Translations under genes and position numbers: made by a program | Part shown: positions 9,430 to 54,189 of the stretch, piece after piece | How the letters are laid out: every line of letters begins with the position of its first letter | How positions within the stretch are numbered: position 1 is the first letter of the stretch | The notes under the pieces: model-generated | Seen by the model: only the letters and a program-made list of their open reading frames with translations | What the model was told of the DNA's origin: nothing | Databases searched by the model: none | NCBI GenBank assembly: GCA_002269645.1 | Contig: NIVC01000548.1 | Location: forward strand, 49,693 to 113,692 | Length of the DNA stretch: 64,000 nt | Direction of reading: 5' to 3' | Origin: Macrostomum lignano | Taxonomy: Eukaryota

Positions 9430-9759
9430 AGCATAGTACAATTCTTGATTTATATTGGGTAACCACACTGCTAACTTTAATAGAGACTGGTACTGACTTG
9501 CCTAAGAAATTGATTAGGCCTATGTCATATAACTGCTCTGTGACTTTAGTTTTACTCAATTGACTTGGTGTGAGTATTAAATTATAATTGTAAGTGCTAC
9601 AAATTAATTTATAAGTTTAATAAGAGCTAACCTAGATATAAACACACTGGACTGCTAATGCAGTGACCTATCCTAAGTTCAAATCTTAGTAAGTAGTATA
9701 AAAAAATAGCATAATTTTTTATTGAAAGATTTTATTAAAGGACTAATTAAGAAGACCTG

Positions 9760-10390: not shown

Positions 10391-10539
10391 GGGAGAATGT
10401 CTATTACTTTGAGTGTGTCATAAGTAATGTCACTGATGTGAAAGTAGACAAACTTGCAATCGCAAATGAAGAAAACTGTACCACTCAACAACATAGAATC
10501 CCCCAATATCAATCACCCTCTGGCAGTGCTCATACAACT

Positions 10540-11170
10540 TGTCCACCTCACCTTAGCCTATAGGTGTTTTTCCTCCAACTGCCATAACCAGTGCAACGCA
10601 GCCTGTTTGACCCCTTCATAGGTTGCAAAACTCTTTTTGGAAAAGTCAGCCTTCAGCCATTTGAACAGGAATCTCTTGCTGACAGAGTCCAAGCTATAGG
10701 GACTCTGTCAGAGCATATTCACTTGCTATGCAGGCAGAAAATTCGAAACAGCCTTTAGGTATGCAGCCGTGCAGTGTCCATCTGCCACAAAACCTTGTCT
10801 AGATGAATTGGATTTGACCAGAGAGTGTGCCAGAGGTCTCTAGTGTGCCAGACAAAGTCAATAAAATACTGGCCATTGACCTTGGTGTTCAGTGGAGTTG
10901 TGCAGATGGAGACTCGTTCATTTGGTGTAAAGGTTACGAGCAGCATGGTCTTCTTGTCCAAGATGGACTTTCTGGTCACAGTTGCCTTGGAGTCCCCAGC
11001 TCCTAGCCAGCAGCAATTGTCTGCTTTGCTGCCCTTGCTATCCAGGTAAAGCCAGTTTTCATCCTCAGCAACCAGGCAGTTTAGGATGTCATTCAAGCCC
11101 TGCCTGCTGAACACCTTGCAGATCTGCTTGGTGCAGGCATCTTGTTGAGATTCATGGTGATTTTTGTTCA
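10540..11170 (-). pseudogene. Mariner (DD34D-like) transposase remnant
   Basis: KKTMLLVTF...VNGQYF...QMDTARLHT...QSPYSLDS...FLFKWLK corresponds to mariner HDNARPHT and PYSPDL motifs. Contains in-frame stops. Confidence 0.75.
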
Positions 11171-31554: not shown

Positions 31555-34511
31555 ATGGAGCCGCAGCAGCTGAAGGATGTCGCGGCCGCCAAGATCGACG
31601 AGTCGCGCGAGCTGCTGCTCAGCGTCAGCTCCCGCCTGTGGCAGAACCCGGAGCTGGCGCTGGAGGAGCGAATGGCGCACCAGCTGCTGACGGAGACGCT
31701 GGAGTCGTCGGGCTTCAGCGTGACGCGGCACTTCGTGCTGGACACCGGGTTCAAGGCCGAGTTCGGGTCTGCTCGACCCCACATCGCCGTGATGTGCGAG
31801 TTCGACGCTCTGCCAGGCATCGGGCACGCCTGCGGACACAACCTGATCGCTGAGGTGGCGGTGGGCGCCGGTCTGGGCATCAAGGCGGCCATGGAGGCGG
31901 GCGGCCTGTCCGGCAGGGTCACCGTGCTCGGGACTCCGGCAGAGGAGGCACACGGCGGAAAGATCGACATGATCAGGTGCGACTACTAAGACTTGGTGGG
32001 GCCACGCACGGAACCTAGTCAATAGCATTTTCACTGTAATTGATCTTGCTCTGTTTCTTCAGTGGGTTGTGAAGAATTTATGACTTTAATAGGAAACAGT
32101 AATTATCGATAGTTTTAGAACCTAGAGGTTATGACATACTGGTACTGTGACAGGAAAAGAAGCATGTGCAGAAAATTAGGACACAACAACACAATCTTGG
32201 TGTTATTTTTTAAGCGGCACATTCTAAGAAATTCAATCTCGTTTGTTTTTATCATTGTATTCGGAAACTATCGCAATGCTACTTTCCCGTTAAAAACTTT
32301 ACCATGACAAGAATCGCTAAAGGGCCATTGCTAGTGCGGCAACTCTTGTGACTTTTTAACGACTCAAACGACTGCAATACTACGGAGAGGCGATTTTTGC
32401 GTCACAATTAGCGCGTCACGTCAGTTGCAGAACCGTAAAAGAGTTGCGAAAGAGTCATACAAGAATCGTGTTGGCGCTTACTATTGCTAGAGATACGACT
32501 CAATTCATCAAGCGATGCAATTGCGCTTCAAACGCAACTCGGTGACTCTACAGCGACTTTAGCACGCCTCAAACACGACTTTACGACCCCAGAGTCGTTA
32601 TAACGTTGCTCCAGCGTCGCCCTAGAGGCAATAAAATGCTTGAAGGTAATTCATGAATCTTGAGGGACTCGTTGACGACTTTTTGACGGCTTGTACCGGA
32701 ACATCTCATCGTTTTAGAGTCATTTAGAGACTCTTTCCTATTTTACTTATGTCAACTGCAATGACGCTTAAACGACCCTGGGACGCTTCTTGGCCTGGGT
32801 TTGATAGTCCTACATTCCTTAAAGCACAGAAATGTCTTTACTCGTACAGTGAGTACTAAGAAGCGCATGTCACACGCCGCTTAACACTGTGCAGATCGGC
32901 ATTCTTCACCGATGTGGACGTCGCAATGATGGCGCACCCCTACAAGCTGACTGTGGCTCGTCCGCGTGCGCTTAGCATCCAGGCATTCGACGTCACCTTC
33001 ACCGGCAAGGCGTCCCACGCTGCCGGCTCGCCCTGGGAGGGCCTCAACGCCCTTGACGCGGCCGTGACGGCCTACCAAAGCGTGTCGAACCTGCGGCAAG
33101 AGATGCGGCCGGACTGGCGGGTGCACGGCATCGTGAAGGAGGGCGGCCAGCGGCCCAACATCATCCCTGAGCGAGCTGTGCTGGGTACGCGATGATCCGG
33201 TTTAAAAATAAGTCATGTCCCTTTGATTTTTGTCGAATCCTAACATGCCTACTAATAGTAGAAAAAGCAAGCCATGTGAATCCTAAGTCCTGTGATGTAT
33301 AGGTCTCGTGAAATTTAGGTCCTATACAGTTTAGGTCTTATGAAGTTTAGTTTCTCTGAAGTTTAGGTCCTGTCAAGTTTTGGGTCTATGAAATTTAGGT
33401 TCTGTGAATGTTAGGTCTTGTAAAGTTTTTGGATTTGTAAAATTTAGGTCCTATGAAGTTCAGGTCCTGTGAAGTTTAGGTCCTATGAAGTTAGGATCTT
33501 GTGAAGTTTAGGTCTTGTGAAGTTCAGGTCTTGTGAATTGACCGTTCTAATTTGACTTTCGGCGATGCGATTTTTAGGTCTTGTATAAAAGCGCCCCATT
33601 GTATTTCTACCTCAGATCAGGGCGGTTAGTCTTTCACAGCGGAATTGACCTGTTGCCACTCTCTCGCGGTCAATGTCTTACCAGGTGACTCATCAAGATG
33701 CATTGGACATAGTACATAAAAGAGTCCCTGTTTTCCTGATTACAAAACTAAATGCTTCAAGTGCGCACCATATATTTCCAAGCCCTCCAAGTTTGATTGT
33801 CATTACAGGGTTTTCATTCTAGAAGTTGTTGACATTTAGGAATTTTTATTTACACTTTGCATATAAAATCACAAAGCAAGTAGAGTCCCAGAAAGGCCAT
33901 TTTACAGTTAAAATCACAAAGCGATAATAGCCCTAAAAGGGCCGTTTTAAAGTTCGAATCAATCATCCAAACAGATAAATAGACACTCCAAACGAAAGTT
34001 TGCCTATCCCAGATGTACCTGCTCTCCCGCAGAGTACTACATCCGCGCTCCAACAGACAAAGAACTCGCCGTTTTGCGTCGCAAAGTGGATGCCTGCTTT
34101 GACGCTGCCGCTCTCGCCACTGGCTGCAGTTGGCAGTCCGAGATAAACGGACACGCCAACAGTAACTTGATAACCAACGAGTCTTTGATTAAATTTTACA
34201 CGAAGAACTTGGTCAGATTGAATGAGCCTTTCCTAGAATCAGAGCCAGATGCGGTTATCGGCTCCACAGACATGGGCAACGTGAGCTACGAGGTGCCGTC
34301 AGTTCATCCAATGTTCTCAGTTGGTGGCCAGGCGGCTATTCACACACGCGATTTTGCTGAGCTGGCTGGCGACCCAGCTGCTCAGCCGCACGCCCTGACT
34401 CAGGCCAAGGCGCTGGCTATGACTGGCATCGATATTCTGACGCAGCCTGGCGTGCTCGAACAGATCTGGGAAGGTTTTCGAGCCGATATGGCCAGGCTGA
34501 AGGACTTTTAG
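31555..34511 (+). CDS. PM20D2: Peptidase M20 domain-containing protein 2, paralog 1 (396 aa)
   Basis: Exons 31555-31976, 32895-33184, 34033-34511. Motifs EFDALPGIGHACGHNLIA, GTPAEE, MAHP, GKASHAAGSPWEGLNALDA, GSTDMGNVS. Confidence 0.92.
32286..32799 (+). repeat. GACTC/GAGTC-rich interspersed element, ~510 bp, in PM20D2-1 intron 1
   Basis: Begins CCCGTTAAAA.C.TTACCATGAC and ends GGACGCTTCTTGGCCT, as do the copies at 34586-35925. Confidence 0.75.
33290..33540. repeat. 16-bp degenerate minisatellite (AAGTTTAGGTCCTGTG)
   Basis: About 15 units in PM20D2-1 intron 2. Confidence 0.85.
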
Positions 34512-34585
34512 CGCTATGTTTACTAGGAGTTCTTGGACAGCTAAAAGAAGTTGGTTTTCAAGATAGTTTCCTGCATAACGTTTCA

Positions 34586-35925
34586 CATTGAAAAGGTTAC
34601 TGTCACCAGAATCGCTAGAGTCACTGCAAACAACTCAAACGACTGTGGTGCGACAGATAAGGCTCAAACCAGTTGCAGAATTGTAAAAGATTCGCAAAAA
34701 GCCGTCCAAGAGTCGTTGTGTCAGAGTTTGACCTAAGTACACTACACGTCGATTCAATTTACTAAGTGACGCAACTCAGTGATTCTACGGCGACTCCAGC
34801 ACGCCTCAGATCTGACTCTGCGGCCCCAGTGTCATTTTAAAAGCGTCATAGGTCACTTGCGTCGCCCCAGAGTCGCAGACAATAAAACACTTCGAATTGA
34901 CTCTCACTCGTAGGCGACTGCCTCTTTTACAACTTTTTGGCGACTTGTACCGTGACATCTCGTCGTTTTAGAGTCGTCTAGAGGTCACTTTTTTCTTATT
35001 TTATCTATTATCTGCACAAACTGACTCTGAAACAACTCTGGGAGAAGCAACTGAGTCTGGGATGCTTCTTGGCCTACCCGATGAGAACAGCACCTAGGCC
35101 CAGAGTCACTTGCGTCGCCCCATATTCGTTTCAGAGTTGTTGCAGATGACACAGGTAAAATAAGAAAGAAGTGACTCTAAACGACTAAACCGACAGGATG
35201 TTACGGTACAAGCCGCCAAAAAGTCAAGCCGCCAAAAAGTCAAGCCGCTCAAGAATCGCCAATCCAATAAAACGCTTTGGAGCGTTTTATTACCTGCGAC
35301 CCTGAAACGACTCTGGGGCCGTAAAGTCGTGTTTGAGACGTTCTAGAGTCACTATAGAGTCACTTGATGAATCAGAGTCACATCTCTAGAGAAATTTCAG
35401 CGCCAACACTTTTACGGTTCTGCAACTAACGCAAAAGTCGCCTCTCCGTCGCATTGCAGTCGTTTGAGTCGTTAAAAAGTCACCAGAGTTGCCACAGAGT
35501 CACTAAAGTCACTAGAGAGTTGTTTGCAATGACTCTTTAGCGATTCTTGTCATGGTAACGTTTTAACGGGTCAAGTACACTAAATGGACAATCGAGTTGT
35601 TATAAATGCGAAATAAGATTCTATTTTACTATGTGAGGCAACTCAGTGATTCTAAAACGACTCTAGCTCGCCCTAGATACGACTCTACGGGGGCCCCCAG
35701 AGTCGTAAAAGCGTCCCAGCTGGTCACTTGCGTTGCCCCAAAGTCGCGGACAATAAAATGCTGCTTTAAAATGACTCTTGCATAACTCTTTGCTGACTTT
35801 TGGCGACTTGTACCGTGACATCTCGTCGTTTTAGAGTCGTTTGGAGTCTCTTCTTTCCAATTTTACCCATGTCATCTGAAACTACTCTGGGGCAACGCAA
35901 GTGACTCCGGGACGCTTCTTGGCCT
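34586..35925. repeat. Cluster of three GACTC-rich elements: forward 34586-35075, inverted 35096-35570, partial forward ~35630-35925
   Basis: Shared termini and internal blocks recognisable on alternating strands. Confidence 0.75.
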
Positions 35926-36902: not shown

Positions 36903-37202
36903 CACTCAGCAACATTGAAAAGTTTCCACCCTCGCGCCAGCCAGTTTCAAAAATGGTTTTTGTCGCCAGACTTGTGCCATAGACGATTGATGATTTCGTC
37001 AACACGCACTTGTGCCATAGACGATTGATGATTTCGTCAACACGCACTTGGGCCATAGACAAAAACTTGGGTCATGACGCCAGACAGCTCGAAGGAAACA
37101 GTCACATGGAGCAGACAGCAGCTGCTTAAAGGAGTCTAAAATCCACGTTCGCAACCGAACGCAATGGTTCGCCAAATGACCGACCTGGTACGAGCGCGGG
37201 CC
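36903..37202 (+). mobile_element. Left arm of an internally deleted Tc1/mariner element (TIR plus transposase codons 1-13)
   Basis: TA|CACTCAGCAACATTGAAAAGTTTCCACCCT terminus. ATG at 37164 gives MVRQMTDLVRARA, which continues in frame after the LTR element. Confidence 0.8.
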
Positions 37203-38066
37203 TGTAGAGTGTTCTACCTCCCGTTAAAAAAGGAAAAAAGAAGATAATCGTATAATACTACTATAAGTAAGTAAGTACACGCATGTGCGCCTAAGCTTTG
37301 AATGAATCACGCTACCAGAAAAAGATGTTACCAGAATAATACGCCATGAGCCATTTTCCCCTTTTAGCGCAACACGTGAATTGTCATGATACTATTTTGG
37401 ATCAAAAACTTGTCTATAAATACAAGCGATCTGAAGCGGTACCGGAGCCATTCTCCCCACGGAAGAGGAGCGCTCCGAAGAGGAAGCCTTAGGAGGACTT
37501 CCTGATCTACCAAGTCAATCGAGACTCGGTCGAGTTGTTGCGGTAAGCCTTCCTTATTTGCGCCCGTTGTGTTAGAGACGTCTCGCTCAAGTCTATTGAG
37601 ACTTGAGTCTAATTGAGTCTGTTGAGACTCTTGAGTCTGTTTAGACTCCATTGGTTGCAGTCTCCAGAAGGACTGCCCCTGATAGATCTTAGAGGACTAT
37701 CAGTGGTTTCCGGAGCTATACCTAGAGTGCATAGAGGCACTGCTAGAAGAAGGAGGCTTAATTTAGACCGCAGTTTGGCGCAGGGTACCCATTGTTGCTA
37801 CGAGGCCTCTGATTGGTCCTGACGGAAGATACCGGCCGGAAGAACTTATCGGAAGTACAAGAGGAACCAGGACCAGAGCAACTGAAGAATCAAGGCGCCT
37901 GATCTACGAGATCTACTGACAAGTTCCTAGCGAGAACTACTCAAGAAATTCAAATCCGGATTAAAGGTAATTGAATACCTTCGTTTGACTTACTGGGTTG
38001 CCTAGCTGTTGAGCTAGAAGTGATTGTTCCTTGATTATCGAAAGTCGGGTAATAAGGAACACATCA
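37203..38066 (+). repeat. 5' LTR (864 bp)
   Basis: TGTAGAG...ACACATCA; TATAAATA at ~37415. No difference from the 3' LTR seen by eye. Confidence 0.97.
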
Positions 38067-38068
38067 AT

Positions 38069-38080
38069 TGGTGATCTCGC
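38069..38080 (+). promoter_or_regulatory. Primer-binding site TGGTGATCTCGC
   Basis: TGG 2 nt downstream of the LTR. Complement ...GAGAUCACCA is most like a tRNA-Trp 3' end (tRNA identity is inference). Confidence 0.75.
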
Positions 38081-38775
38081 CCTCTCGGCACTACTCAAAC
38101 TTTGAGCAATAGCCCTGATCAAGCTATTGTAAAGTGACGACAGAGCGACTTCATTAATTTTGCGCGCACGTGTTAGAGTTAACACTTTTTAAGTCCGTTA
38201 CGTTTTGAAACTCGAGTAAAATTTTGGTGTACAGGTTTGAGCACCTGTCAAATTTGAGTACAGTTTGAGCACGCGTGTTAAATTTTGTTTTAACGAGCTC
38301 GAGCAAGTGTGAGTTAAAATAAAACCGAAATTAAATTCATCGGTACACTGAAAACAAACCGAAAATAAAAGAATCGTCGACGCAAAACAAACAAAAAATA
38401 ACTGAAACATTTTGCCGGCACAAAAACAAAACCGAAATTAATTGAAACTTCGTGGAGAGCGGAGTTAATTGACAAAAGAGAGAGAGTCAAAGAAGAGAAA
38501 AAGACTTTGCAAAACAAGAAGACAAAGCCCACTTCAACTTGAAGATACACTTTGCGGGACGCCGCATAAGTGCGAAATCAGCAAGCGAACAGAACAAGTT
38601 CATTTGAGGACAACCAGTGGCAGCAAGCCACACCGCATCCGAGGCCAGCGAATAACAAATCGACACCACAAGACAATTCGTTACAGTCGAGGTTTATTCC
38701 GAGGCAAACACCACACTGGACGATCCGTTACAAATCGATCCAGATCTTGAACTACCGTTCTATCCTATCAACAAC

Positions 38776-40247
38776 ATGGCGCGGCGCAATCCAACGGTAC
38801 ACAGAGACATCAAAGAAACGGTCGGTACCTTCTCGATGGAGAAAGATTTTAACACATTTGTCGACCACTTTGACCTGGTATGTAGGGAATACAACCTACA
38901 AAATCCAGAGAAGCACAGCTGCTGCCACCTCTTCTCCAAGGTACTGCGCGAGAAATTTACGGCAAGCTGGATGCGGCAACACAGCAAAATTATCCAGCAC
39001 TAATCATTCAACTGCGCGCGCATTTCAACCGTTGCGGCACAAACAGATCAGTGCTGCTGCACAAGTTGCATAACAGAAGGATGCAAGCAACAGAATCCTT
39101 CCTCGCCTTTGTGGACGATATCCGCCAGATAATTAAGGCACTGCATCAGCCACCGCTGCAAGCTGCGGACCAACCACCACTGGGAGCGGCAGAATTGGCC
39201 GCCAGAGAAAGACAACGATTGATGGATCGTGAACAAAACCTCATCCTGCACGTAATAAACAACGCACAGCCGTCACTTCGGGATAGACTTTTGCGTGAAA
39301 ATATCGAAACCGAAGAAGACCTTTTGCGTTGCGGAATGCAATGGGAAGCCAGTGCCCCATTAATGACGACAGGCAACAATGAAGTGCAGAAACTGACGCA
39401 GCAACTAAACAAGTTAATGCAGCACCAGACAGCTGCTATCGCCGAACAAAAAAGACGAAATGAACAAGCCTCAGCCAGATGTTACTACTGCGGACAAGAA
39501 GGACATTATCAGATTAATTGTCCTCATTGGTCAACAAGATACGACAAGCCGCGACAGATATTCAACAATCAGAAGCCGCAGAAACCATGGCAGCACTATC
39601 AAAATCGCCAACAACAAGGAATGAGACGCTTCGGAAATGATAGACGCTTCGGAAATAATGACCGCTCCGGAAATGATGGCCGCTTCGGAAACGAAGGCCG
39701 CTTCAGAAGTAATGGCTACAGGCCACGCAACGTCAGATACACACAAAGACAGCCGACGCAAGCAATGCCACGATACGCGAATGCCATCACGTACACACCG
39801 GAAAATGAACAGCAAGAACAGCAAGTGTTCACAATTGACGACTTGGAAATGGACTTCACAGTCCCGGAACTTGACATCAGCTTGATCGAAAAGAAGACGA
39901 CGCACGAGGACAACACTGACAACACAGAAGAGACGAATGAAACCGAAATGATCAAATTAAAAGAGACCACCGGAGACAGCAGAGAAAACAGGAAGAAAGT
40001 AAATCACAAGACAAGGGAGGAGGCGGAGAGCGACATCGGCAACGAAGAAAAGATGAAAACCGGCGAAGAAAACAACTATGAATCGACAACAGTGGATGAC
40101 GACAAAACGAGCATGAAAGACAAAGAAATGAAAGAAGAAGAAGAATGTAGAAGTTACGGCAACGACCACGACTGCGAGGTGCGTGATGACACGAACGACT
40201 ACCAAGCCGAAAGAGGAATGCAGGAAGAACGAGAGCGGAGAATCTAA
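38776..40247 (+). CDS. gag: Gag (one -1 frame break at ~38986-38989), with CCHC zinc knuckle, RFGN repeats and acidic tail
   Basis: Capsid-like FSMEKDFNTFVDHFDLVC; after the shift, NYPALIIQLRAHF...; CYYCGQEGHYQINC. Confidence 0.85.
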
Positions 40248-40294
40248 GTTCCGACAGCGATCAAGGCTACGAAATACAATGGAAAGATGAAGAA

Positions 40295-42562
40295 ATGGAA
40301 AAAGAACAGGTGAAAGAAAAGCCGAGTTCCGACAGCGACGAATGCTACGAGATCCGATACAAACGAAATGGTGAAGCCTATATTCAAACGGTCGACTACA
40401 AGACAGAGAAAAGATACCAAACGCAATGGAGTGAAACAACGGAAACATCGGAAGAAGCCGCAGACGAAGATAATGAAATAACCAAAAAGCAAAGCGAATC
40501 AGAAGCCTTCCGCCTGGATCAGCCAATGGAACAACCGAAAGAATATGATGCGGACATGGAAGATAACGAATGGCGATCGCAGCCAATGCCAGCAAGGACA
40601 ACGGCAAAATCCAAGAAGTGGAAAAACTGGCTATTCTGGATCATCGTGATACTACTGATAGCAGTAGTCGCCAAAGCAACGGCAACGGAAAAGCCAATGA
40701 TTTGTCCAACGGATGCGCATATCCAACCGATGATCTACAAGATACCAACCGACATCAAATGCAGTTACTTCAAGACAAACCAGACAAAACCAAAGAAGAT
40801 TACACTCGATCTCTACAAGGCTAACATCAAGAAGCATCGACAACACGGGATAGTATGCTTCAGAGACAAGCACCTGGTGGAAAAAGTTTGGCGCGGACAA
40901 TGGAACCGGATCCGATTTAAACAACATGAGCTACATGTGTCGCACGCGGAATGCCTACAATGGAATCAAACACTATTTTCAAAGGATGGTGAACTGGAAC
41001 CAGATGAGAAGGTCGGCAACGCACAGCTGTTCAGAACAAAGAATTCAGCCAACGGTCGATATATTCACTTCTTCGGAAAATGGAAAGAATATATGGCACG
41101 CAACAGCTACTTGATCAGAAATATTCCATTCTACTACAATCCGTACGAGAAAATGGAATCGTTACAGCTGCAACTAAGCGAATGTCGATACAGTGAAGGA
41201 TGGTGTCCAACGCCGATTCTACGGAAGGAAGAACTACACAGTCTACCACTGAGTCCAACATATCATCAAGACTATCGATGGCAGATTGAGCACAGAGCAC
41301 AATCACACTATGAGGAACCGTACAATTCACGACAATATTTCTTCGCATGGGAAGTAGAGCCGGAAATTGACTGCAAGCTTCAAAAGTATCACACAGTTGA
41401 AGGAGGACTACTGTCGAATACGTTTTTGGCAAAGCAGGAGACTTGGCCTGACGTTTCAAAAGAACCGGTTGAACAGGAACTCAAATGCAAGGATACGGAC
41501 AAGACGCTATTCATCTCGGAGCAAGAAATACCAGTCTATGTAAAGGATGACGACAAGCGAACCTTCCTGACGATCATAAACGGAACGTATCAACAACAAG
41601 AAAGGCGACGACGCGACATAGAACGTCCACGATTGGTGTCGAACCGACTACTGTCAGCAAAGATCACGGCTTTAGATCACAATCTGCATAACCAGCTAAA
41701 TCACCTACATCGATCACTGGTTCAGTTAACTTGCAAGATGCACGCAATCAACTTGAACTACGCAAGACAAAACTACTATGTCAACCCTACGATGACATTT
41801 CGCAAGATCACTGGAATGAGAGAGGTTCTGGCAATTCCGATATATGGACATCTCCTGATATACAAGTGCACGCCGATACAGCACTTTAACATCTTGCCGT
41901 CAAACACGTCAACAACCTGCTACGATAAGCCAAGGATTGAAGCGTTCTACGAAGGAAAACGAATTCAGGGATTCTTGGACACGGTACACAACATCATCGT
42001 TGGCACCGCAATACCGAGACCTTGCACCACGGCAGTAAACTACTATCAACTGGACAATGCACTACACGTCATCAAAACAACTGGAACGACAGCAAACGTC
42101 ACAGAACCGGAAGTAATCGTCGACGAAAACTACGACATGGAGGATTTGAAAATCCGATTCAACAGAACGAAGTATACGCCATTCGCCGATATCCAACTTG
42201 ACGAGATAACACCAGGATGGACGATCAACGACTTCTTGCAAGCGTTCATCACCCAACGCAAGATGATTCACCAGCTGTTCACAAGAAAGGACAAAGGAAC
42301 CGGGACAGGAAGATTTCCCGTCCTTGTTTCAATGGACAGCGCCATCAAATCATTTTGGACAAATAGCTTCTGGGAGCTGCTCAATGGAAGAGGCAGTCTC
42401 TATCAAGGATTCATCTTCTACGGTGCTTGCATTGTGTGGATTGTCACGGCAATCTTCATCATTTCATCGATCGTACGGTGCTTCAGTCAAACTTGTCCAA
42501 GAGCTAAGAAGACAGTGAATGCCATAATGCAAAGAACGACAACGGAAGCGACAACAGTTTAG
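40295..42562 (+). CDS. env: Env-like class III viral fusion glycoprotein (gB/chuvirus-G-like); frame open from 40190
   Basis: Hydrophobic signal segment WLFWIIVILLIAVVAKATA (40628-40684), Cys-rich ectodomain (CP..C, VS..EC, CRYSEGWC), furin site RRRR (41603-41614), VNPT..R and CYDKP.I motifs reminiscent of gB, several N-glycosylation sequons, TM at ~42407-42475. Confidence 0.8.
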   Translation: MEKEQVKEKPSSDSDECYEIRYKRNGEAYIQTVDYKTEKRYQTQWSETTETSEEAADEDNEITKKQSESEAFRLDQPMEQPKEYDADMEDNEWRSQPMPARTTAKSKKWKNWLFWIIVILLIAVVAKATATEKPMICPTDAHIQPMIYKIPTDIKCSYFKTNQTKPKKITLDLYKANIKKHRQHGIVCFRDKHLVEKVWRGQWNRIRFKQHELHVSHAECLQWNQTLFSKDGELEPDEKVGNAQLFRTKNSANGRYIHFFGKWKEYMARNSYLIRNIPFYYNPYEKMESLQLQLSECRYSEGWCPTPILRKEELHSLPLSPTYHQDYRWQIEHRAQSHYEEPYNSRQYFFAWEVEPEIDCKLQKYHTVEGGLLSNTFLAKQETWPDVSKEPVEQELKCKDTDKTLFISEQEIPVYVKDDDKRTFLTIINGTYQQQERRRRDIERPRLVSNRLLSAKITALDHNLHNQLNHLHRSLVQLTCKMHAINLNYARQNYYVNPTMTFRKITGMREVLAIPIYGHLLIYKCTPIQHFNILPSNTSTTCYDKPRIEAFYEGKRIQGFLDTVHNIIVGTAIPRPCTTAVNYYQLDNALHVIKTTGTTANVTEPEVIVDENYDMEDLKIRFNRTKYTPFADIQLDEITPGWTINDFLQAFITQRKMIHQLFTRKDKGTGTGRFPVLVSMDSAIKSFWTNSFWELLNGRGSLYQGFIFYGACIVWIVTAIFIISSIVRCFSQTCPRAKKTVNAIMQRTTTEATTV

Positions 42563-45500
42563 AACTAACAGAAACTGCACATTGTGAGGTTCAAGGGCAA
42601 CCGACACTAGCAACGCGGCTATATCCATCGATTCCGACAACACCAACGGCACCAAGGATACAACCACCCAACTATCAAGCAGAACAGCACGAGCCAAAAT
42701 GGCCGGAAAACTACGTCTGTACGCTACACGCCGAGATTGGCAAAGCAATGGCTCAGGTCATTGTCAACAACTTGCCATGTCGAGCACTACTGGATTCAGG
42801 CAGCTCGATCACAGTCATCTCGCAACAATTATGCAACAAGCTACGACTCGCGGTACGACCAGCAGCAATCGCAGTTGCAGGAGCAGGAGGACATTCACTC
42901 AACATCCTAGGAAAAGCAGATATCGACTTGAAAATTGCTAATAAACAGCTGACGGTCCCGACGTACATCATCGACAGACTACCAAACCAAGACGTCATCG
43001 TTGGAATCGACACGTTCAAGCAGCTTCAACTACCATTGACCTTCGACTTCAACAAGCAAACGTTTAGGATCGACACGGTGGAGCAACCGCTGATCAACCA
43101 GATTCGAGTACTACCGAAAGTAACTCTGCAGCAAGATGTCATTATCCAGCCTGAAAGCGCATGCTGGGTCAGAGCGAAAACGACCAGCGCGGCAGATGAA
43201 GCAATGATATTTGATCCACACAGGAGAGTCACGGCAAAACATCAAATCATGATGCCTACGGCACTAGTGCTGGTTGCAAAGGATAAGCAACTGCCAGTAC
43301 AAATCTTCAACCCGAACACAGAAACGGTTCATCTACGACAAGGAATGTGCATCGGTCATCTCAACACCCAAGCATCGGTTATGCTGATTGAACAAGCGAC
43401 TCCACGACTAACAGAGGAAGAATTTCAAAAGAAGATCAATTTGGATGACAGCCCGATTACGGAACAGCAAAAGAGGAAAGTTCGACAGCTGTTGTGGAAG
43501 TACAACGAAGCCTTCTGCCATCATGATTACGACATCGACGAGCCAAGGACATCAAACAGGAAATCAAACTTCTGCCGCACACGGAACCAATTCAGTGCAA
43601 GCCGTACCCGATCGCCAAGCATCTGCAACAACACTTTGACGAAATCATCGATAAAATGCTAAAGCACGGCATCATCAGCAAAGCTATTTCGGCTTACTCC
43701 TCACCGTGCCTACTGGTACAGAAGAAGGAGACAAACGAAAGACGACTCGTATGCGACTTCAGACTGTTGAACAAGTACATACCGACGGATCAGCAAAGCC
43801 TACCGAAGATCTCCGAACTACTAGCAAAGCTCAACACGGCAAAATTGTTCACGGTGTTCGACCTACGTCATGGATTTTGGCAAATTGAAATCGAGAAAGA
43901 GTCACGACAGTACACGGCTTTCAAAACCTACAATGGACAAGTATACGAGTACAATCGATCGCCGATGGGACTCAGCAACAGCCCAGCAACGATGAGCCGA
44001 CTAACAGCATACATGCTTGCAGGATGCACGAACCTGTTGCACTATGTTGACGACATCTTGGCCCACGGAGAAGACTTCGACGACTCTATGAAGCGACGGA
44101 GAAGGCCCTCGCGCTTATACAACGTCAAGGTCTGAAGCTACAACCAACTAAATGCAAATTCTTCCGAGACAACGTGCGTTACCTGGGACATCAGGTGACA
44201 GCCAAAGGAATCTCACCGGACCCAGACAACGTGGAAAAGGTGAAGAAGTTTCCTACGCCAACCAGTATAACGAAGGTCCAATCATTCCTTGGACTTGCGC
44301 AATACTTCAGGAAGTTCTTACCTAACTTCGCAAAGACAGCAAAGCCACTGTACGACCTGCTCAAGTTCGACAAATGGAAGCAAGACAACTGGACACAGAG
44401 ACAACAGGAAAGTTTCGACGAAATCAAACGACAGCTGACATCAGACGCACTGCTACAGCATCCGGACTTCGACAAGCCCTTCATCATCGAGACAGACGCC
44501 TCAGGAACGGGACTCAGAGCAGTCCAACTACAGGAAACCGAGGACAAGAAGGAACGACCTATTGCTTACGTCAGTCGAGCACTCAAACCAAATGAGACAA
44601 AGTGGTCAGCTACGGAACGAGAGCTACTAGGAGTCTTGTTCGCCCTGCGACAGTTTCATTACTACATCTATGGTTCTCCAATACAGACGATAGTACGCAC
44701 GGATCATGCACCATTGACCTACGTCGTAACTACAAAAGGACAGACCAACAACCGACTCATCAGGATGACACTCAAGATACAGGATTACAACTACAAACTC
44801 GTCTACAAACCAGGAATTACCAACAAAGCCGCGGACGCCCTGTCAAGAGCCTATGAAGTCAACGCCATTCATCCAATCCCTAACATCAAGGAGTTGGTGG
44901 ATGAAACCGAGCGCGACAACTTCTACCAAGCGGTTAAAGACGACGACAAGAACATCAAACTTAGCCCATGGAACGAAAATTCCTACGCAAGCAACGACAA
45001 CACCTAACAATCAATAAGTCACGGCTCTACTGGATGAGCGACAATAAACCTAAGATCTACGTACCATATTCGTTTCGGCAAGCAATTCTCAACGAGCTGC
45101 ACGACAACCCACTCGCTGGACACCTGTCGGCCGCAAAGACCATCGCGAGAGTGGAACAATACTACTTTTGGCCAACTATGTACGGCGACATCAAGCAGTA
45201 TTGCAACAACTGCCATTCATGTGCTGCATCAAAGACAGGACGACGACAGAAACCGCAGCTACAGTCCATTCCGAAGTCGACTACAATGGACTGTCTAAGC
45301 ATCGACATCACCGGACCACTGCCACCGAGCTGTCTCCAGGGCATCGCCTACACCTACATCCTAACCGCCTTGGACATCTTCTCGAAGTTTGCTATCGCCA
45401 TACCGATACCGGACATCACAGCTCAGACAGTGGCAATGAGTTTCTTCAACGAAATCATTTGCAAGTACGGCACGCCGAAGAACCTCACATCGGACAACGG

Positions 45501-46254
45501 ATCGCAGTTTACATCGCAGCTGTTTCAGCAAGTCGTAAGGATTCTCAACATTACGCAGATCTACACATCGACCTACAATCCGAAGGCAAACATGGTTGAA
45601 AGGTTTCACCGCAACCTGCACGAGATGATTACACACTTCGCGCACCAACAGCCGGAAGACTGGATCATCTACCTGCAATCTGTAACAATGGCCTACAACA
45701 GCGCTATTCATCGATCAACGGACAATACGCCATTCTTCCTAATGTTTGGACGAGACTTCCAACCGCCGAATCTGCTCGCACAGCAATTGCTACCATCGCA
45801 GTACGTGGAAGTACCGACTTCCATTCAGAAATTTGTCACGCAGCTACACCTCGCATGGAAGATCGCCAAGCACAACATTGACAACCAGGTGGCTCTGACC
45901 ACCGGCAACGACGCGAGATCGACAACCCTGACGGCCGGCGACATCGTTTACCTACACTACCCGCCGCAGCAGACGCATAAACATGCACAGAAGTATAAAG
46001 GACCCTATCGAGTGGTCCAACTAACGTCACCGACAACGGCACGCCTGGCTAATGTACAAGATCCACATCAGCACCAGTTCTACGTACACATTCATCGACT
46101 AAAGAAGATCAACACTGACACCGCGACGTTTCTACCGACATTAGACAACGCGGATCGCACGCGTTCAACGAACCGCCACATCGCGACAAAGCACGAGGAG
46201 ACTCAAACGACAGATGTGAGCCAGCCACATGGCTACAACCTACGACCACGCTAG
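42508..46254 (+). CDS. pol: Pol: late-domain-like linker, protease, RT, RNase H, integrase (three -1 breaks at ~43537, ~44081, ~44965)
   Basis: LLDSGS; YSSPCLLVQK, RLVCDFRLLN, DLRHGFWQI, YVDDIL; TDASG, TERELLG, RTDH; H..GH..C..C zinc finger, DITGP, SDNGSQF, VERF, KYKGPYRV. Confidence 0.93.
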
Positions 46255-46374
46255 AGTTTCGAGAGCAACCCCGTGTAGTGACCGGGATAAAGAATAGCAC
46301 TACAGCTTCGCAAGCTTGTCGTAAAAGGCGACTAATCCGAGCGACACAAAGACAGCGACAAATTGACAACAATT

Positions 46375-46749
46375 ATGAGCAACGCACTGTCGAAACAGGC
46401 GCCCCAGCCTCAGCAGCTATATGACTGCCCGATATGTTTAACTGATGACTTGGCTGTCAAGCCACCGACTATTTGCATCAACGAACATAAAGTTTGCGGA
46501 CAATGTTTAAGCGATTCACATTATATTCAGCCATGGCAGAATTGTCCCCTCTGTAGAGATAGTTTGCGACAATGTGCCTATTGTTATTCTTGGCGCACGT
46601 TTCAATATTGTAACCACCAACATTTTATTTGCATGCACTGTTTGAAGCAAACCGCTAGTAGGGGCGTTATAGGATGCCCCTTATGTAATAGTATGCCGCG
46701 AGACTGCACGTTTCGAAAGTGGTGTCGGATCAAACCTGATGCCACTTGA
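46375..46749 (+). CDS. Accessory ORF with two tandem C3HC4 RING-like fingers (124 aa) inside the LTR element
   Basis: CPIC..CINEHKVCGQC..CPLC followed by CAYC..CNHQHFICMHC..CPLC; intact ATG to TGA. Confidence 0.8.
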   Translation: MSNALSKQAPQPQQLYDCPICLTDDLAVKPPTICINEHKVCGQCLSDSHYIQPWQNCPLCRDSLRQCAYCYSWRTFQYCNHQHFICMHCLKQTASRGVIGCPLCNSMPRDCTFRKWCRIKPDAT

Positions 46750-46914
46750 TGTCTACGCGATATTCGAGTTTTGACCGCAATATGTACTGAAAAGTTTTTA
46801 GAGTTTTGACCAAACCCTCGCTTCACTAGACGCGCACAAAATCAATTGTTTATTTCCTATATTAACTGATCACCACAGAATTTTATTGTTAAAACTCGGG
46901 ACGAGTTTTTTCGT

Positions 46915-46926
46915 AAAAAAGGGAGA
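46915..46926 (+). promoter_or_regulatory. Polypurine tract AAAAAAGGGAGA
   Basis: Ends 3 nt upstream of the 3' LTR. Confidence 0.85.
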
Positions 46927-46929
46927 TTT

Positions 46930-47793
46930 TGTAGAGTGTTCTACCTCCCGTTAAAAAAGGAAAAAAGAAGATAATCGTATAATACTACTATAAGTAAGTA
47001 AGTACACGCATGTGCGCCTAAGCTTTGAATGAATCACGCTACCAGAAAAAGATGTTACCAGAATAATACGCCATGAGCCATTTTCCCCTTTTAGCGCAAC
47101 ACGTGAATTGTCATGATACTATTTTGGATCAAAAACTTGTCTATAAATACAAGCGATCTGAAGCGGTACCGGAGCCATTCTCCCCACGGAAGAGGAGCGC
47201 TCCGAAGAGGAAGCCTTAGGAGGACTTCCTGATCTACCAAGTCAATCGAGACTCGGTCGAGTTGTTGCGGTAAGCCTTCCTTATTTGCGCCCGTTGTGTT
47301 AGAGACGTCTCGCTCAAGTCTATTGAGACTTGAGTCTAATTGAGTCTGTTGAGACTCTTGAGTCTGTTTAGACTCCATTGGTTGCAGTCTCCAGAAGGAC
47401 TGCCCCTGATAGATCTTAGAGGACTATCAGTGGTTTCCGGAGCTATACCTAGAGTGCATAGAGGCACTGCTAGAAGAAGGAGGCTTAATTTAGACCGCAG
47501 TTTGGCGCAGGGTACCCATTGTTGCTACGAGGCCTCTGATTGGTCCTGACGGAAGATACCGGCCGGAAGAACTTATCGGAAGTACAAGAGGAACCAGGAC
47601 CAGAGCAACTGAAGAATCAAGGCGCCTGATCTACGAGATCTACTGACAAGTTCCTAGCGAGAACTACTCAAGAAATTCAAATCCGGATTAAAGGTAATTG
47701 AATACCTTCGTTTGACTTACTGGGTTGCCTAGCTGTTGAGCTAGAAGTGATTGTTCCTTGATTATCGAAAGTCGGGTAATAAGGAACACATCA
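46930..47793 (+). repeat. 3' LTR (864 bp)
   Basis: Copy of 37203-38066 at offset 9727. Confidence 0.97.
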
Positions 47794-48132
47794 GGCCATT
47801 GGCATGCTGGACGCTGGGATGTCCATCCGAGCTGTTGCTAGCCAAATTGGGCGGTCGCACACAGCAATCCGCAAACTGCAGATCAAGTGCAGAGAAACGA
47901 GCAGCGTGGTGCTCACTCCTTTGACGACTCCTTTGAAGGCGAATCCGACAGCACTGCCTAGTAACAGGAATGTAGCCCTGCATCGGTTGGAGTGCACTTG
48001 CTCTTTGCTGTTCCTTTGCTTCGTTCGAATCCGGATTATATATTTGTCTATGGCTCAAACCACAAATATCTCCACCCACCAAAACGTTGACCCTTCGCGC
48101 GCTAGGGTGGAAACTTTCAATGTTGCTGAGGG
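47794..48132 (+). mobile_element. Right arm of the internally deleted Tc1 element
   Basis: IGMLDAGMSIRAVASQIGRSHTAIRKLQIKCRETSSV (Tc1 N-terminal HTH), then the DDE region is lost. TIR AGGGTGGAAACTTTCAATGTTGCTGAGGG; the right TA is not preserved. Confidence 0.8.
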
Positions 48133-48278
48133 GCTCGTATTAATACCTGTATGAAACTTTCAATTTGTTTTTTTTTGTCTTCTGATCTAATATTTTTTTT
48201 ACTTCTGAAGTTTACCTAGCTTAATATCAGTTACGAGTACTATTAGTTTACATGACTGCATTTTCAGCGACTGCTCTG

Positions 48279-49560
48279 ATGAATCCGCAGCAGCTGAAGG
48301 ATGTCGCTGCCGCCAAGATCGACGAGTCGCGCGAGCTGCTGCTCAGCGTCAGTTCTCGCCTGTGGCAGAACCCGGAGCTGGCGCTGGAGGAGCGAATGGC
48401 GCACCAGCTTCTGACGGAGACGCTGGAGTCGTCGGGCTTCAGCGTGACGCGGCACTTTGTGCTGGACACCGGGTTCAAGGCCGAGTTCGGGTCTGCTGGC
48501 GCCGGGCGGCCCCACATCGCCGTGATGTGCGAGTTCGACGCTCTGCCGGGCATCAGGCACGCCTGCGGACACAACCTGATCGCCGAGGTGGCGGTGGGTG
48601 CCGGTCTGGGCATCAAGGCGGCCATGGAGGCGGGCGGCGTGGCCGGCAGGGTCACCGTGCTCGGGACGCCGGCAGAGGAGGCACAGGGCGGCAAGATCAA
48701 CATGATCAATGCGGGTTTTTTCAAAGACGTTGACGTCGCTCTGATGGCGCATCCAGACCGCATGACAACGGTACACAGCGCTCACTTGAGTCTGAGTAGT
48801 ATTGAGGTTATCTTCACCGGCAAGGCGTCCCACGCGGCCGGCTCGCCCAGGGAGGGCCTCAACGCCCTTGACGCGGCCGTGACGGCCTACCAGAGCGTGT
48901 CGAACCTGCGGCAGCAGATGCGGCCGGACTGGCGGGTGCACGGCATCGTGAAGGAGGGCGGCCAGCGGCCCAACATCATCCCTGAGCGAGCTGTGCTAGG
49001 TCAGGTTATTAGTGCAATCTGTAGTGCGGATTAAAAGTGCAAAACTAAGCTCTTGCATCTTGGTGACGCAGCAAACGCTTCAACTTCCAGAGTACTGCAC
49101 CCGAGCTTCAACTGGCGGCGACTCGCAACTGCTGCTCAACAAAGTGAAGCAATGCATGCATGCGGCTGCCATGGCAACCGGATGCGAGTGCCTCATCTCA
49201 GAGTCGGAACCTGAGTACAAGAATGTGATTCCCAATCGCGCTCTTGCTGGCGCCTACAGTGCGAACTTGAGAGCTCTGGGTGTTGAGCACACTCAGCTGT
49301 ACCCGGAGCCCACCGGCTCAACCGACATGGGCAATGTGAGCTACGAGGTGCCGTCCATTCATCCGATGTTCTTCATCGGTGGCGACACTGCCACGCATAG
49401 TGCGGGATTTGCGGTGCTGGCCGGAGCTGCTGAGGCGCAGCGTTACGTCCTGGAGCAGGCCAAGGCTCTGGCGATGACCGGCATCGATGTGCTCACGGAG
49501 CCTGCGCTGGTGCAGCGATGCTGGGAAACTTTTCAGGAGGATCTGAGCATCTACGGCTAA
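48279..49560 (+). CDS. PM20D2: PM20D2 paralog 2 (396 aa)
   Basis: Exons 48279-48999 and 49091-49560. Same M20 motifs, with GIRHACGH and GSPREG variants. Confidence 0.9.
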
Positions 49561-49810: not shown

Positions 49811-50211
49811 TTGTGATGGGAAACTCGAAAATGTGTTTTTTCGTTGCCTAGTGCAAATTTTTCTAACCAAAATAGTTGGTACGAAAGCTTTATTAAAGTC
49901 TTTTTTGCTAAAAAATTACTGAATTGCAATGTTTATATTTTATCATGAAGCAATCGAGAAAATATCCTCATGAAAACTGTTTTAATCGTAATTTGAATTA
50001 AGTGGACTAATTCCAATAGAACTATTTGATAGTCCTAAATATACATAATTGAACATTTTTCCAGTTCCAGGCGTTTTCGCTCTCAAATATGTATTTTCAG
50101 GTTATTTCTGCTTACTTGTTAGTAGCGAGATACAGTTTCTTTAGTCCGTTATTCCGCTACAGGTCTCATTGTCTCAGGTTTTCTACCAACCGCATTTCAG
50201 CGACTGCTCTG

Positions 50212-52424
50212 ATGAATCCGCAGCAGCTGAAGGATGTCGCGGCCGCCAAGATCGACGAGTCGCGCGAGCTGCTGCTCGGCGTCAGCTCCCGCCTGTGGCA
50301 GAACCCGGAGCTGGCGCTGGAGGAGCGAATGGCGCACCAGCTGCTGACGGAGACGCTGGAGTCGTCGGGCTTCAGCGTGACGCGGCACTTTGTGCTGGAC
50401 ACCGGGTTCAAGGCCGAGTTCGGGTCTGCTGGCGCCGGGCGGCCCCACATCGCCGTGATGTGCGAGTTCGACGCTCTGCCGGGCATCGGGCACGCCTGCG
50501 GACACAACCTGATCGCCGAGGTGGCGGTGGGCGCCGGTCTGGGCATCAAGGCGGCCATGGAGGCGGGCGGCCTGGCCGGCAGGGTCACCGTGCTCGGGAC
50601 GCCGGCAGAGGAGCACTACGGCGGAAAGATCAACTTTATTGAGGCCGGCTTCTTCAAAGACGTTGACGTGGCCCTCATGGCGCACCCGTACAAGCTGACG
50701 GCAGTGCACGTGCCGCACCTCAGTGTGGCTTTCCTCCGAGCAACGTACACCGGCAAGGCGTCCCACGCTGCCGGCTCGCCCTGGGAGGGCCTCAACGCCC
50801 TTGACGCGGCCGTGACGGCCTACCAGAGCGTGTCGAACTTGCGGCAGCAGATGCGGCCGGAGTGGCGGGTGCACGGCATCGTGAAGGAGGGCGGCCAGCG
50901 GCCCAACATCATCCCTGAGCGAGCTGTGCTGGGTGAGTCGATTTGATAAAAAGTTATTCAACGTAGCTCTGTTAAATTGACTGCTGAAAATAATGTTTGC
51001 TGAACGTCAAATGGTGCAGTTACCATTGTATACTGATGATGTAAGGCCCCCTGTTGTTTCCTTGTGCTAAAGCCCCTTGATCCTAAAGCCCCTTGGTGCT
51101 GGCGCCCCTTGGTGCTGGCGCACCTTGGTGCTGGCGCCCCTTGGTGCTGGCGCCCCTTGGTGCTGGCGCCCTTGGTGCTAAAGCCTCTTGGTGCTGGCGC
51201 CCCTTGGTGCTATAGCCCCTTGGTGCTGGCGCCTCTTGGTGCTGGCGCCCCTTGGTGCTGGCGCCCCTTGGTGCTGGCGCCTCTTGGTGCTGGCGCCCCT
51301 TGGTGCTAAAGCCCCTTGGTGCTGAAGCCTCTTGGTGCTAAAGCCCCTTGGTGCTAAAGCCCCTTGGAGCTAAAGCCTCTTGTTGCTAAAGCCCCTTGGT
51401 GCTGGCGCCCCTTGGTGCCAAAGCTTCTTGGTGCTAAAGCCCCTTGATGCTGGCGCTCCTTGGTGCTGGCGCCTCTTGGTGCTGGCGCCCCTTGGTGCTG
51501 GCGCCCCTTGGTACCAAAGCCCCTTGGTGCCAAGGCTTCTTGGTGCTAAAGCCCCTTGATGCTGGCGCTCCTTGGTGCTGGCGCCCCTTGGTGCTGGCGC
51601 CTCTTGGTGCTGGCGCCTCTTGGTGCTGGCGCCTCTTGGTGCTGGCGCCCCTTGGTGCTGGCGCCCCTTGGTACCAAAGCCCCTTGGTGCTAAAGCCTCT
51701 TGGTGCTAAAGCCCCTTGGTTACAAAGCCCCTTGGTGCTAAAGCCTCTTGGTGTTAAAGCCCCTTGGTGCTAAAGCCTCTTGATGCTAAAGCCTCTTGAT
51801 GCAGGAGCCATCTGTCATGGTTGAAGCTGAACTTGCACTTTAAATTCTATGGCTTTCTTGACGTATTACGTTTTAGTTATTGTTTAGAAGTTAAGCACCT
51901 TAAATCTGCTTCGATCCGAAACAATGTTTCTTTCAACATCAATTTCGTCAGACTATTTCGTCCGCTGTCCCAGCGATCGCGAACTGGCCGTACTCCGAGC
52001 TCGAGTTGAAGCCTGCCTCCGGGCTGGCGCGGTCGCCTCCGGCTGCGAATGCAGCATCGAGGACATAAGCCGCGGCTACAGCAGCGTCATCTGCAACGCG
52101 CCACTCGGAGCTGCCTATAGCGCCAATCTGACCGCTCTAGGTGTTGAACACGTTGGCATCACGGAACTGCCGTCGGGTTCAACAGATATGGGCAACGTTA
52201 GTTACACTGTGCCGGCAATCCATCCCATGTTCTACATGGGCGGCGACGCGCCCAACCATAGCGTGGAGTTCACTCGATTTGTTAACCTACCGGAGGCCCA
52301 GCCGTATACTCTGGCTCAGGCCAAGGCCCTGGCCATGACTGGCATTGACATCCTGACTGGGCCCGAGCTGCTGGCCAAGTGTGAGGCTCAGTTTAAAGCC
52401 GATTTGGCTCGGTTCGCTGCCTAA
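50212..52424 (+). CDS. PM20D2: PM20D2 paralog 3 (397 aa)
   Basis: Exons 50212-50932 and 51952-52424; all M20 motifs intact. Confidence 0.92.
51065..51800. repeat. 17-bp minisatellite (CCCTTGGTGCTGGCGCC / CCCTTGGTGCTAAAGCC)
   Basis: About 42 units in the PM20D2-3 intron. Confidence 0.93.
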
Positions 52425-53324
52425 TTGCAATATCGAACATCGATTGCAAAAAACGAATCATCTGCTGAGACATCGTTTAGAAAGTTTTATTGTTATAATG
52501 ACACCTTTCTAAGAAAACAAATTTTCCTTTAACGTTTGAAAATATAGCGTGATTATACGAAAATTTTATAAATCGCTGTTAATGTTTGCGGCAATAGTGC
52601 AAAGTCCAATGAAACATTTGCTATAAGTTCTGTAATAGAATATTTAAACCAAATAAATCGTGCTATAATATATTTCTGCTTTAAATTAGTGTTTTAAGTA
52701 CTTAAATAAACTTCAGTTAAGGTTGCGAATACCTTCTTTAATTATTTGGTTTGAAATGATGAAATTTGAAATTTGTATTTACTCCAGTTATTGAGTGATT
52801 TGTGATTTGATTACATTGCATTGCGTTAGATTGTGATAATGCATGTATAACTATTGCATTGCTTTTGGACATGACTGCCTTCTCAACGTCCCAGTAACTT
52901 GTTGTTCCCTCAGCGCCATACAGGATTCCAATTACATCTAAGATTTAAAAAATAAAATAATGCTTAATATTTTACAATTATCTTTCTCATCCATAAAGCT
53001 GGAATTGCAACAACATCCACTGTCTTTACAAATCCTTGGGATGCAGATTTGTTGCTGAGGTGGGGACGAGGTTAGAGAGAACAACTGGCTAGCTTGCGAA
53101 AAATACAAAGATTTTAGTGTTGGTCGTACTCAATGTACAATGGAATGTACACTCGATCTATGCAGCTGTTGTCAATCTGTACAGGTGGGGCTGACTGGGC
53201 TTAACTAGAAAAAGAACGGATGATTTTTTGTGCCTCAGTTACAGCAACTCTTTCACAATCTGTTTCACACTCTTCCACTCTGTCACAATCCGACCTGCTC
53301 TGGGTTTATTCGCTTCTCAGTTCT

Positions 53325-53865
53325 CCTCTCTTCCCTTCCTCTCCTCTCCTCTCCTCTACTCTCCTCTCCTCTCCTCTCCTCTCCTCTACTCTCCTCTCTT
53401 CTCCTCTCCTCTCCTCTCCCCTTTCTCTCCTCTCCTCTCCTATCCTCCCCTCTCCTCTCCTCTCCTCTCCTCTCCTCTCCTCTCCTCTCCTCTCCTCTCC
53501 TCTCATCTCCTCTACTCTCCTCTCCTCTCCTCTCCTCTCCTCTCCTCTCATCTCCTCTACTCTCCTCTCTTCTCCTCTCCTCTCCTCTCCCCTTTCTCTC
53601 CTCTCCTCTCCTATCCTCCCCTCTCCTCTCCTCTCCTCTCCTCTCCTCTCCTCTCCTCTCCTCTCCTCTCCTCTCCTCTCATCTCCTCTACTCTCCTCTC
53701 CTCTCCTCTCCTCTCCTCTCCTCTCATCTCCTCTACTCTCCTCTCCTCTACTCTCCTCTCCTCTCCTCTCCTCTCTCCTCTCCTCTCCTCTCCTCTCCTC
53801 TCCTCTTCTCTCTCCCCTCTCTCCCCTCTCTCCTCTCCTCTCCTCTCCTCTTCTCTCTCCCCTCT
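53325..53865. repeat. (CTCCT)n microsatellite
   Basis: About 540-bp pentanucleotide tract. Confidence 0.95.
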
Positions 53866-54189
53866 TTTATCTAGGCCTCAGGAAAAATGATTCATATGAT
53901 TCAATTATTATTCAATTACATAATTCAGGAATTATGTAACGCAGCTTATTCTGTTTTGTACAGGAATAATGGTAGGCATTGTTCTTTATGCTGCGCCTCT
54001 GCAGATAGCTTTTGTCTGGAGAGAATTCCATATACTAAAATCTGCTCCCATCTGTGGGATGAGTCACAGAATGAGTAAACTCTGCATGGGGTCACAGGCA
54101 AATACTCCAAGTTAAGTCACAGCACCACAGACCAGTAAATAAAATATAGTATTATCAATCGGTCTTGTTTCCTGGTCTTTTGGGGGGTT

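Follow-up and report, generated by a model that had tools for sequence, protein, structure and literature searches.

A gB-type envelope region between gag and pol in a young Ty3/gypsy element of Macrostomum lignano, probably expressed within one polyprotein

Results

Anatomy of the element

We analyzed a 64,000-nt stretch of the Macrostomum lignano genome (hereafter, the window), in which a Ty3/gypsy element of 10,591 bp spans positions 37203-47793. Its long terminal repeats (LTRs), each 864 bp in length, were located by script on the plus strand at 37203..38066 (5′ LTR, TG...CA) and 46930..47793 (3′ LTR). The two LTRs are 100% identical over 864 bp, with a spacing of 9,727 bp, and are flanked by a 4-bp target-site duplication (TSD; left 37199..37202, right 47794-47797, no strand assigned). 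A primer-binding site (PBS) beginning with TGG lies 2 nt past the 5′ LTR at 38069..38080, and a polypurine tract (PPT) occupies 46915..46925, both on the plus strand. A search for tRNA genes within the window found none. The window also contains a 16-bp tandem array, which dominated the whole-window repeat search.

All coding features of the element are on the plus strand. gag starts from the ATG at 38776 (38776..39780) and contains a CCHC knuckle at about 39480-39527 (zf-CCHC, E 2e-4); in 33 of 39 other copies of the family, the gag start codon was in frame with the knuckle. An acidic low-complexity spacer predicted to be cytosolic (39781..40615, 28-32% D/E) leads from Gag to an internal signal or signal-anchor segment (40616..40681), which was recognized by hydropathy and has six K/R and no D/E residues ahead of it. 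Next comes an ectodomain of 571 aa (40682..42394), assigned as gB-like and class III by AlphaFold2, Foldseek, VIA and PF24664, with an RRRR furin-type site at 41603..41614; a comparable site is present at the same place in a sister family. The C-terminal transmembrane (TM) helix of env (42398..42475), also recognized by hydropathy, is followed by five K/R and no D/E residues. K/R-rich flanks thus precede the first hydrophobic segment and follow the second, as a topology threaded through the ER membrane needs.

Downstream of env lie an aspartic protease (PR) with its linker to the reverse transcriptase (42508..43662; LLDSG, about 42754-43011; PF13650, E 1.7e-10), the reverse transcriptase (RT; YVDD) with RNase H (RH; 43527..45007; RVT_1, PF17917 and PF17919), and an integrase (IN) with an H2C2 zinc domain and core (44965..46254; PF17921, E 6e-21; rve, E 8e-15). 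These are followed by an accessory ORF of 124 aa with two RING-like Cys clusters (46375..46749; zf-RING_2, E 0.002, below the cut-off). The Pfam domain order PR-RT-RH-IN is that of gypsy elements. When RT was ranked by similarity to solved structures only (PDB sequence matches), Ty3 came first (E 5e-27), followed by foamy virus (8e-19) and HIV/MLV (about 1e-12). The TG...CA LTR pair, TSD, PBS, PPT, pol order and Ty3-like RT place the element in Ty3/gypsy (Metaviridae), in agreement with an earlier sequence-only reading of this DNA, which had taken it for a potentially infectious flatworm endogenous virus.

In the assembled window copy, env appears as a stop-to-stop frame at 40190-42562 encoding 790 aa, with the Gag CCHC knuckle upstream and PR-RT-RH-IN downstream (Pfam). 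Over its first ~140 aa, this frame still belongs to the acidic spacer that follows Gag (28% D/E). Hydropathy revealed two hydrophobic segments, at about aa 143-165 and 737-762, and the 571 aa separating them contain 12 Cys and 6 N-glycosylation sequons. RRRR is found at aa 472, VNPT at 531, LLIYKC at 555 and CYDKP at 577. The signal-like segment, Cys-rich glycosylatable ectodomain, RRRR site and C-terminal TM upstream of the protease, together with the last three motifs, had all been named in the sequence-only reading, and each was located. The frame matched Monjiviricetes_fusion (PF24664) with an E-value of 1.4e-4, under the curated cut-off.

The env ectodomain is predicted to adopt a class III fold

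For fold prediction, the ectodomain of the window copy was aligned with 42 of its 44 phmmer matches. AlphaFold2 returned a model with a pLDDT of 76.8 and a pTM of 0.57, in which a long central helix occupies residues 321-367 and the last ~90 C-terminal residues are of low confidence. In a Foldseek search against the PDB, all rows listed were herpesvirus gB (best E 9e-21), with modest whole-model TM-scores of 0.34-0.43 against post-fusion gB among the matches listed. VIA alignment with HSV gB gave a Z-score of 12.3 and an rmsd of 8.9 over 400 aligned residues, and alignment with gB domain IV gave a Z-score of 11.9 and an rmsd of 3.8 over 164 residues; overall, the gB matches of the model had Z-scores of 9-12 and an rmsd of about 9 over about 400 residues. 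The top rows in BFVD were glycoproteins of Beihai rhabdo-like virus 3 and Midway nyavirus (the latter at rank 2), herpes gB and chu-like glycoproteins.

The model therefore presents the features of a class III fusogen, namely a gB/G-like multi-domain fold with a long central helix, and by hydropathy the ectodomain has a signal segment on its N-terminal side and a TM anchor on its C-terminal side. Ectodomain residues 1-495 are predicted to share their fold with herpesvirus gB and mononegaviral/chuviral G (class III, PF24664), whereas sequence identity to these proteins is 10-17% and the flatworm env sits inside a retroelement polyprotein. We consider the class III assignment of the predicted ectodomain fold to be sound. 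The proposal that env encodes a gB/class III-like fusogen is thus borne out at the level of the model, which matches herpesvirus gB in Foldseek and VIA and nyami/chu-like glycoproteins among the BFVD models.

Family copies carry env at a constant position, mostly in one frame

A genome search with the env frame yielded 93 candidates; all 40 that were scored were 91-100% identical to the query, nearly all with the full ORF, and the genome thus holds at least 40 copies with env. In the copies, env lies at a constant position between gag and pol, confirming the proposed placement (Pfam order and 40/40 scored matches); a survey of 39 other copies, three of which are truncated by contig ends, showed that gene order is conserved and that other copies do carry the ORF. 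Pairwise dN/dS between natural copies (ungapped, stop-free copies only, 29-36 per domain) was 0.10 and 0.06 for the two halves of env, indicating purifying selection, and 0.02-0.07 for the gag and pol domains. Because of the identity of the 40 scored matches and dN/dS values of 0.06-0.10, the env frame is not a chance ORF.

We compared LTR pairs in 20 copies. Four had no pair, a longer 3′ region placing the LTR beyond the extracted stretch; in 15 of the remaining 16, the two LTRs were at least 99% identical, indicating that the family was recently active. In 8 of these 16 copies, the LTR pair had well-defined TG..CA ends and was flanked by a 4-bp duplication; several TSD calls were blurred by chance alignment extension.

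In the survey, eight of the 39 copies were unbroken from the knuckle to the integrase, in one frame of ~2,400-2,540 aa. The stretch from the knuckle to the signal segment was open in frame in 26/39 copies, and that from the TM to the protease in 30/39. Frame breaks occurred at similar rates along the entire element (0.11-0.61 per kb per copy), and those at the gag/env and env/pol junctions were about as common as those within RT or env. These results indicate that env is normally the middle part of one polyprotein. Consistent with this, frames of ~2,500 aa also occur in a sister family that shares ~62% env identity and in which the order is the same. In 16 of 26 scanned distant homologues (the best and longer ones of 44), the chain that contains env also contains a gag marker upstream and/or PR/RT downstream (Pfam), although some of these chains may be gene-model joins. 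The sequence-only reading had described an env gene between gag and pol: its position stands, but not its separateness, since most copies have one gag-env-pol frame. Accordingly, the coordinates 40190-42562 do not delimit a gene; both ends are frame breaks absent from most copies.

Purifying selection shows that the glycoprotein has a function without telling which. It could have been kept, for example, for ER tethering of Gag/Pol assembly, for direct cell-cell fusion or for receptor interference, with the element spreading mainly within the cell, and the discussion section of a recent eLife paper describes the transmission mechanism of gB-carrying elements as unknown (PMC13524379). However, the class III architecture, furin site and TM anchor are kept in this family and in the sister family, and tethering alone would not require them; we regard such a non-infectious role as unlikely.

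Frame breaks of the window copy

The window copy itself has frame breaks near 38910, 40230, 41434-41464, 42545, 43537, 44080 and 44964, of which 41434-41464 is a short out-of-frame stretch within the ectodomain, and its gag, env and pol regions are in different frames as assembled. Such an arrangement might be expected if env, lying between gag and pol, were expressed separately, whether from a start codon of its own, through splicing or by programmed frameshifting. The env/pol break near 42545 also favors this view, in that it is found at the same place in 5 of the 37 other copies covering the site, where the local haplotype does not tell in-frame from out-of-frame copies. However, this break has no base run longer than 2. 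Contigs from four sequencing runs (four studies) differ from the window copy at three breaks in 4/4 runs, and at the break near 42545 in 2/4 runs at full depth, indicating that these breaks are assembly errors or mutations of minority copies. The run contigs, which show presence rather than absence and say nothing of strand or level, had no listed joint within the coding region. Together with the absence of a stop or frame change at the junctions of most copies and the even spread of breaks described above, these observations make separate expression of env improbable.

The contigs from the four runs also cover the env region and bridge both junctions, and the stretch is present in 18/24 listed sequencing runs, none of which is recorded as RNA, although RNA status is only guessed. 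We can practically dismiss the possibilities that env is a one-off viral glycoprotein insertion in an otherwise ordinary gag-pol element or that the arrangement is an assembly chimera: the insertion is refuted by the survey, in which at least 40 copies carry env at the same place, env shares the reading frame of its neighbors and shows selection, and contigs from the four runs span it.

RING-like ORFs downstream of the integrase

The longest ORF after the integrase was a double-RING ORF in 35 of 37 copies examined. It begins with Met-Gly in 33 of these and with Met-Ser in two, including the window copy, and its length ranges from 70 to 222 aa across copies; longer variants and sister families have tandem arrays of two or three such ORFs. 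dN/dS of the RING core was 0.36 for close pairs and 0.08 for distant pairs (33 usable matches from 53 loci). A search for homologues of the RING protein found none at E<=0.001 among 93 candidates, which were of similar length only. In the Atlas, viral RING clusters scored 0.90-0.91 with low recognition; we treat these weak look-alikes only as a lead. We also considered a conserved, myristoylated matrix protein as a possible identity of the RING protein, but the ORFs of the sister families start without Gly2, which weakens this idea. In the literature searched, we found no description of RING ORFs in gypsy elements, which is no proof of absence, and PMC5408684 makes no mention of RING.

Relationship to published elements

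According to Chary & Hayashi (eLife 2026, PMC13524379), HSV/gB is the only env type found in errantiviruses of Nematoda, Bryozoa and Platyhelminthes, and the order of these elements is GAG-ENV-POL. The sequence-only reading had conjectured an independent env capture; in PMC13524379, the GAG-ENV-POL elements are described as non-monophyletic and an ancient origin is argued for. The entry mechanism of the gB-type elements is called unknown there, and Sacco et al. 2022 (J Gen Virol 103:1739, doi 10.1099/jgv.0.001739) are credited with the flipped order, ENV before POL, in nematodes. Row 1445 of Supplementary file 1 of that paper lists Platyhelminthes_Rhabditophora_Mlig_errantivirus_2 from Macrostomum lignano as ENV_HSV, with LTRs at 0-863 and 9727-10591 and 16 copies by the 98% rule. 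LTR length, LTR spacing, the total of 10,591 bp, and the 12-mer and offset of the PBS in this row all equal those of the window element. The element therefore very likely belongs to the Mlig_errantivirus_2 family, as matched by tabulated LTR length, spacing and PBS rather than by sequence alignment. The env-alignment and cysteine-bridge sheets searched in the supplement do not include Mlig_errantivirus_2.

With the GAG-ENV-POL, HSV/gB-type errantiviruses as presented in PMC13524379, the window element shares gene order, a gB-type env, flanking signal and TM segments, and a Ty3/gypsy pol; its env holds the middle position across copies, and structure prediction assigns it to the gB type. The placement of a gB-type env between gag and pol is thus real and already known. 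The sequence-only reading had called this position atypical; the layout is already in print for three phyla (Platyhelminthes, Nematoda and Bryozoa; PMC13524379), and the family has apparently been catalogued. The main text of that paper mentions no polyprotein, fused or single ORF, frameshift, splicing, accessory gene, RING or zinc finger, although its figures and parts of its supplements may cover them. In the literature searched, nothing relevant was found on a gypsy envelope of Macrostomum or on a gag-env-pol single ORF.

The nematode endogenous retroviruses of Sacco and co-workers reportedly combine an uninterrupted gag-env-pro-pol ORF with additional ORFs and a glycoprotein resembling those of Nyamiviridae; in our family, 8/39 other copies are unbroken from the knuckle to the integrase, and the host phylum differs. 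Tas is a BEL/Pao-type element with an env of the gB/chuvirus-like fold class, and its env-like region follows the integrase. In contrast to BEL/Pao elements (Tas and mosquito BEL elements), the window element has a gypsy-type pol, env before PR, and a RING ORF after IN. The gB/chuvirus-like glycoprotein of env-carrying BEL/Pao elements is nevertheless of the same fold class as here, according to the methods section of PMC13524379.

Discussion

We interpret the element, with a probability of roughly 85%, as a young copy of a GAG-ENV-POL, HSV/gB-type Ty3/gypsy "errantivirus" in which env lies inside one gag-env-pol polyprotein. Since the headline layout is already in print, the finding adds little as first stated.

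From the sequence features, we infer the following scheme of expression, in which fusion, particles and processing are predictions. A single gag-env-pol polyprotein of ~2,500 aa would be made, and Gag and the acidic spacer would remain cytosolic. The internal signal segment would direct the ectodomain into the ER, where it would be luminal, until the C-terminal TM helix stopped transfer and left Pol cytosolic again. Signal peptidase, furin and the element protease would then cut this chain into Gag, the Pol enzymes and a trimeric fusogen anchored in the membrane. Three look-alike sequences are candidate protease sites: RYANAI after Gag, KTVNAI after the TM and YEVNAI at the RH/IN border; of these, the sister family retains only the one at the RH/IN border. 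If particles were to bud through that membrane, they might go on to fuse with other cells, probably those of the germ line or stem cells, much as Drosophila gypsy does by means of its F-type env.

Such a polyprotein would yield Gag, Env and Pol at a 1:1:1 ratio, which is unusual for retroelements; therefore, an unseen splice or recoding event may exist. More speculatively, the family may represent a complex, retrovirus-like flatworm lineage that makes Gag, a class III fusogen and Pol 1:1:1 from a membrane-threaded polyprotein, with processing like that of flaviviruses or alphaviruses and no splice or frameshift control. Its expanding set of RING proteins, from one to three or more, would then counter host defence as ubiquitin ligases of the viral type or, in the Gly2-bearing form of this family, assist budding while bound to the membrane. 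We hold this wider picture to be possible, but on balance doubtful.

The single-frame membrane topology and the RING cargo genes were not found in the literature searched and are worth follow-up. As a young, multi-copy family in Macrostomum lignano, which appears to be a laboratory flatworm, these elements offer a good place to ask how gB-carrying retroelements spread.

Genomic surroundings of the element

The element lies within a cluster of host genes that resemble one another and are arranged in tandem; their exons were found at window positions 33951-34511, 48225-49560, 50053-50946 and 51888-52424, and more are likely. These exons look like those of an M20 amidohydrolase (PM20D2/ACY1L2-like). 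Simple tandem arrays lie at ~26100-27900, ~50950-51780 and ~53200-53900; one of them consists of ~97 units of 16 bp, and the arrays give rise to spurious long ORFs. The window also contains a perfect, MITE-like inverted-repeat element of ~300 bp (9121-9429) and an inverted-repeat family with members ~3 kb apart (32280-35577), an additional copy of which lies near 19270-19360.

The env/pol boundary and pol

The reading frame breaks between env and pol at window ~42545, where no homopolymer was found. Five of 37 other copies, coming from two sequence subgroups, have the break at the same position, and it may be either an inherited variant or a recurrent assembly error. Between protease and RT (~43060-43400) lies a beta-rich-looking domain of ~110 aa, for which a Pfam search returned no match. 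Some gypsy elements have a dUTPase-like domain at this position (PMC5408684). Three distant gag-env-pol polyproteins (P0025, P0034 and P0041) have two D-T-G protease motifs in tandem after env.

Arrangement and possible mosaicism of copies

Several element copies are clustered on single contigs of the searched genome (G000: C2447, C1130, C2121, C87, C669 and C272). Two copies on C2447 are ~9.73 kb apart, a distance equal to the LTR spacing, suggesting that they are tandem copies with a common LTR. Identity of loci L019-L039 to the window copy varies by region (LTR, 79-100%; env, 91-94%; substitution-free patches near 42200-42900), suggesting that subfamilies have recombined.

RING accessory ORF

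A double-RING accessory ORF (46375-46749, + strand) lies 3' of integrase. RING ORF matches numbered 147 in G000, and such ORFs were located in four loci (L007:8403-9071 and 9207-9773; L073:7449-9212; L060:698-2491; L064:1302-8793); one 10-kb locus contains six RING-like ORFs. The ORF begins with M-G-x-x-x-S, a myristoylation-like motif, in 33 of 37 copies. The Gly is absent from sister families, in which two to three RING ORFs are arranged in tandem. Purifying selection acts on the double-RING ORF.
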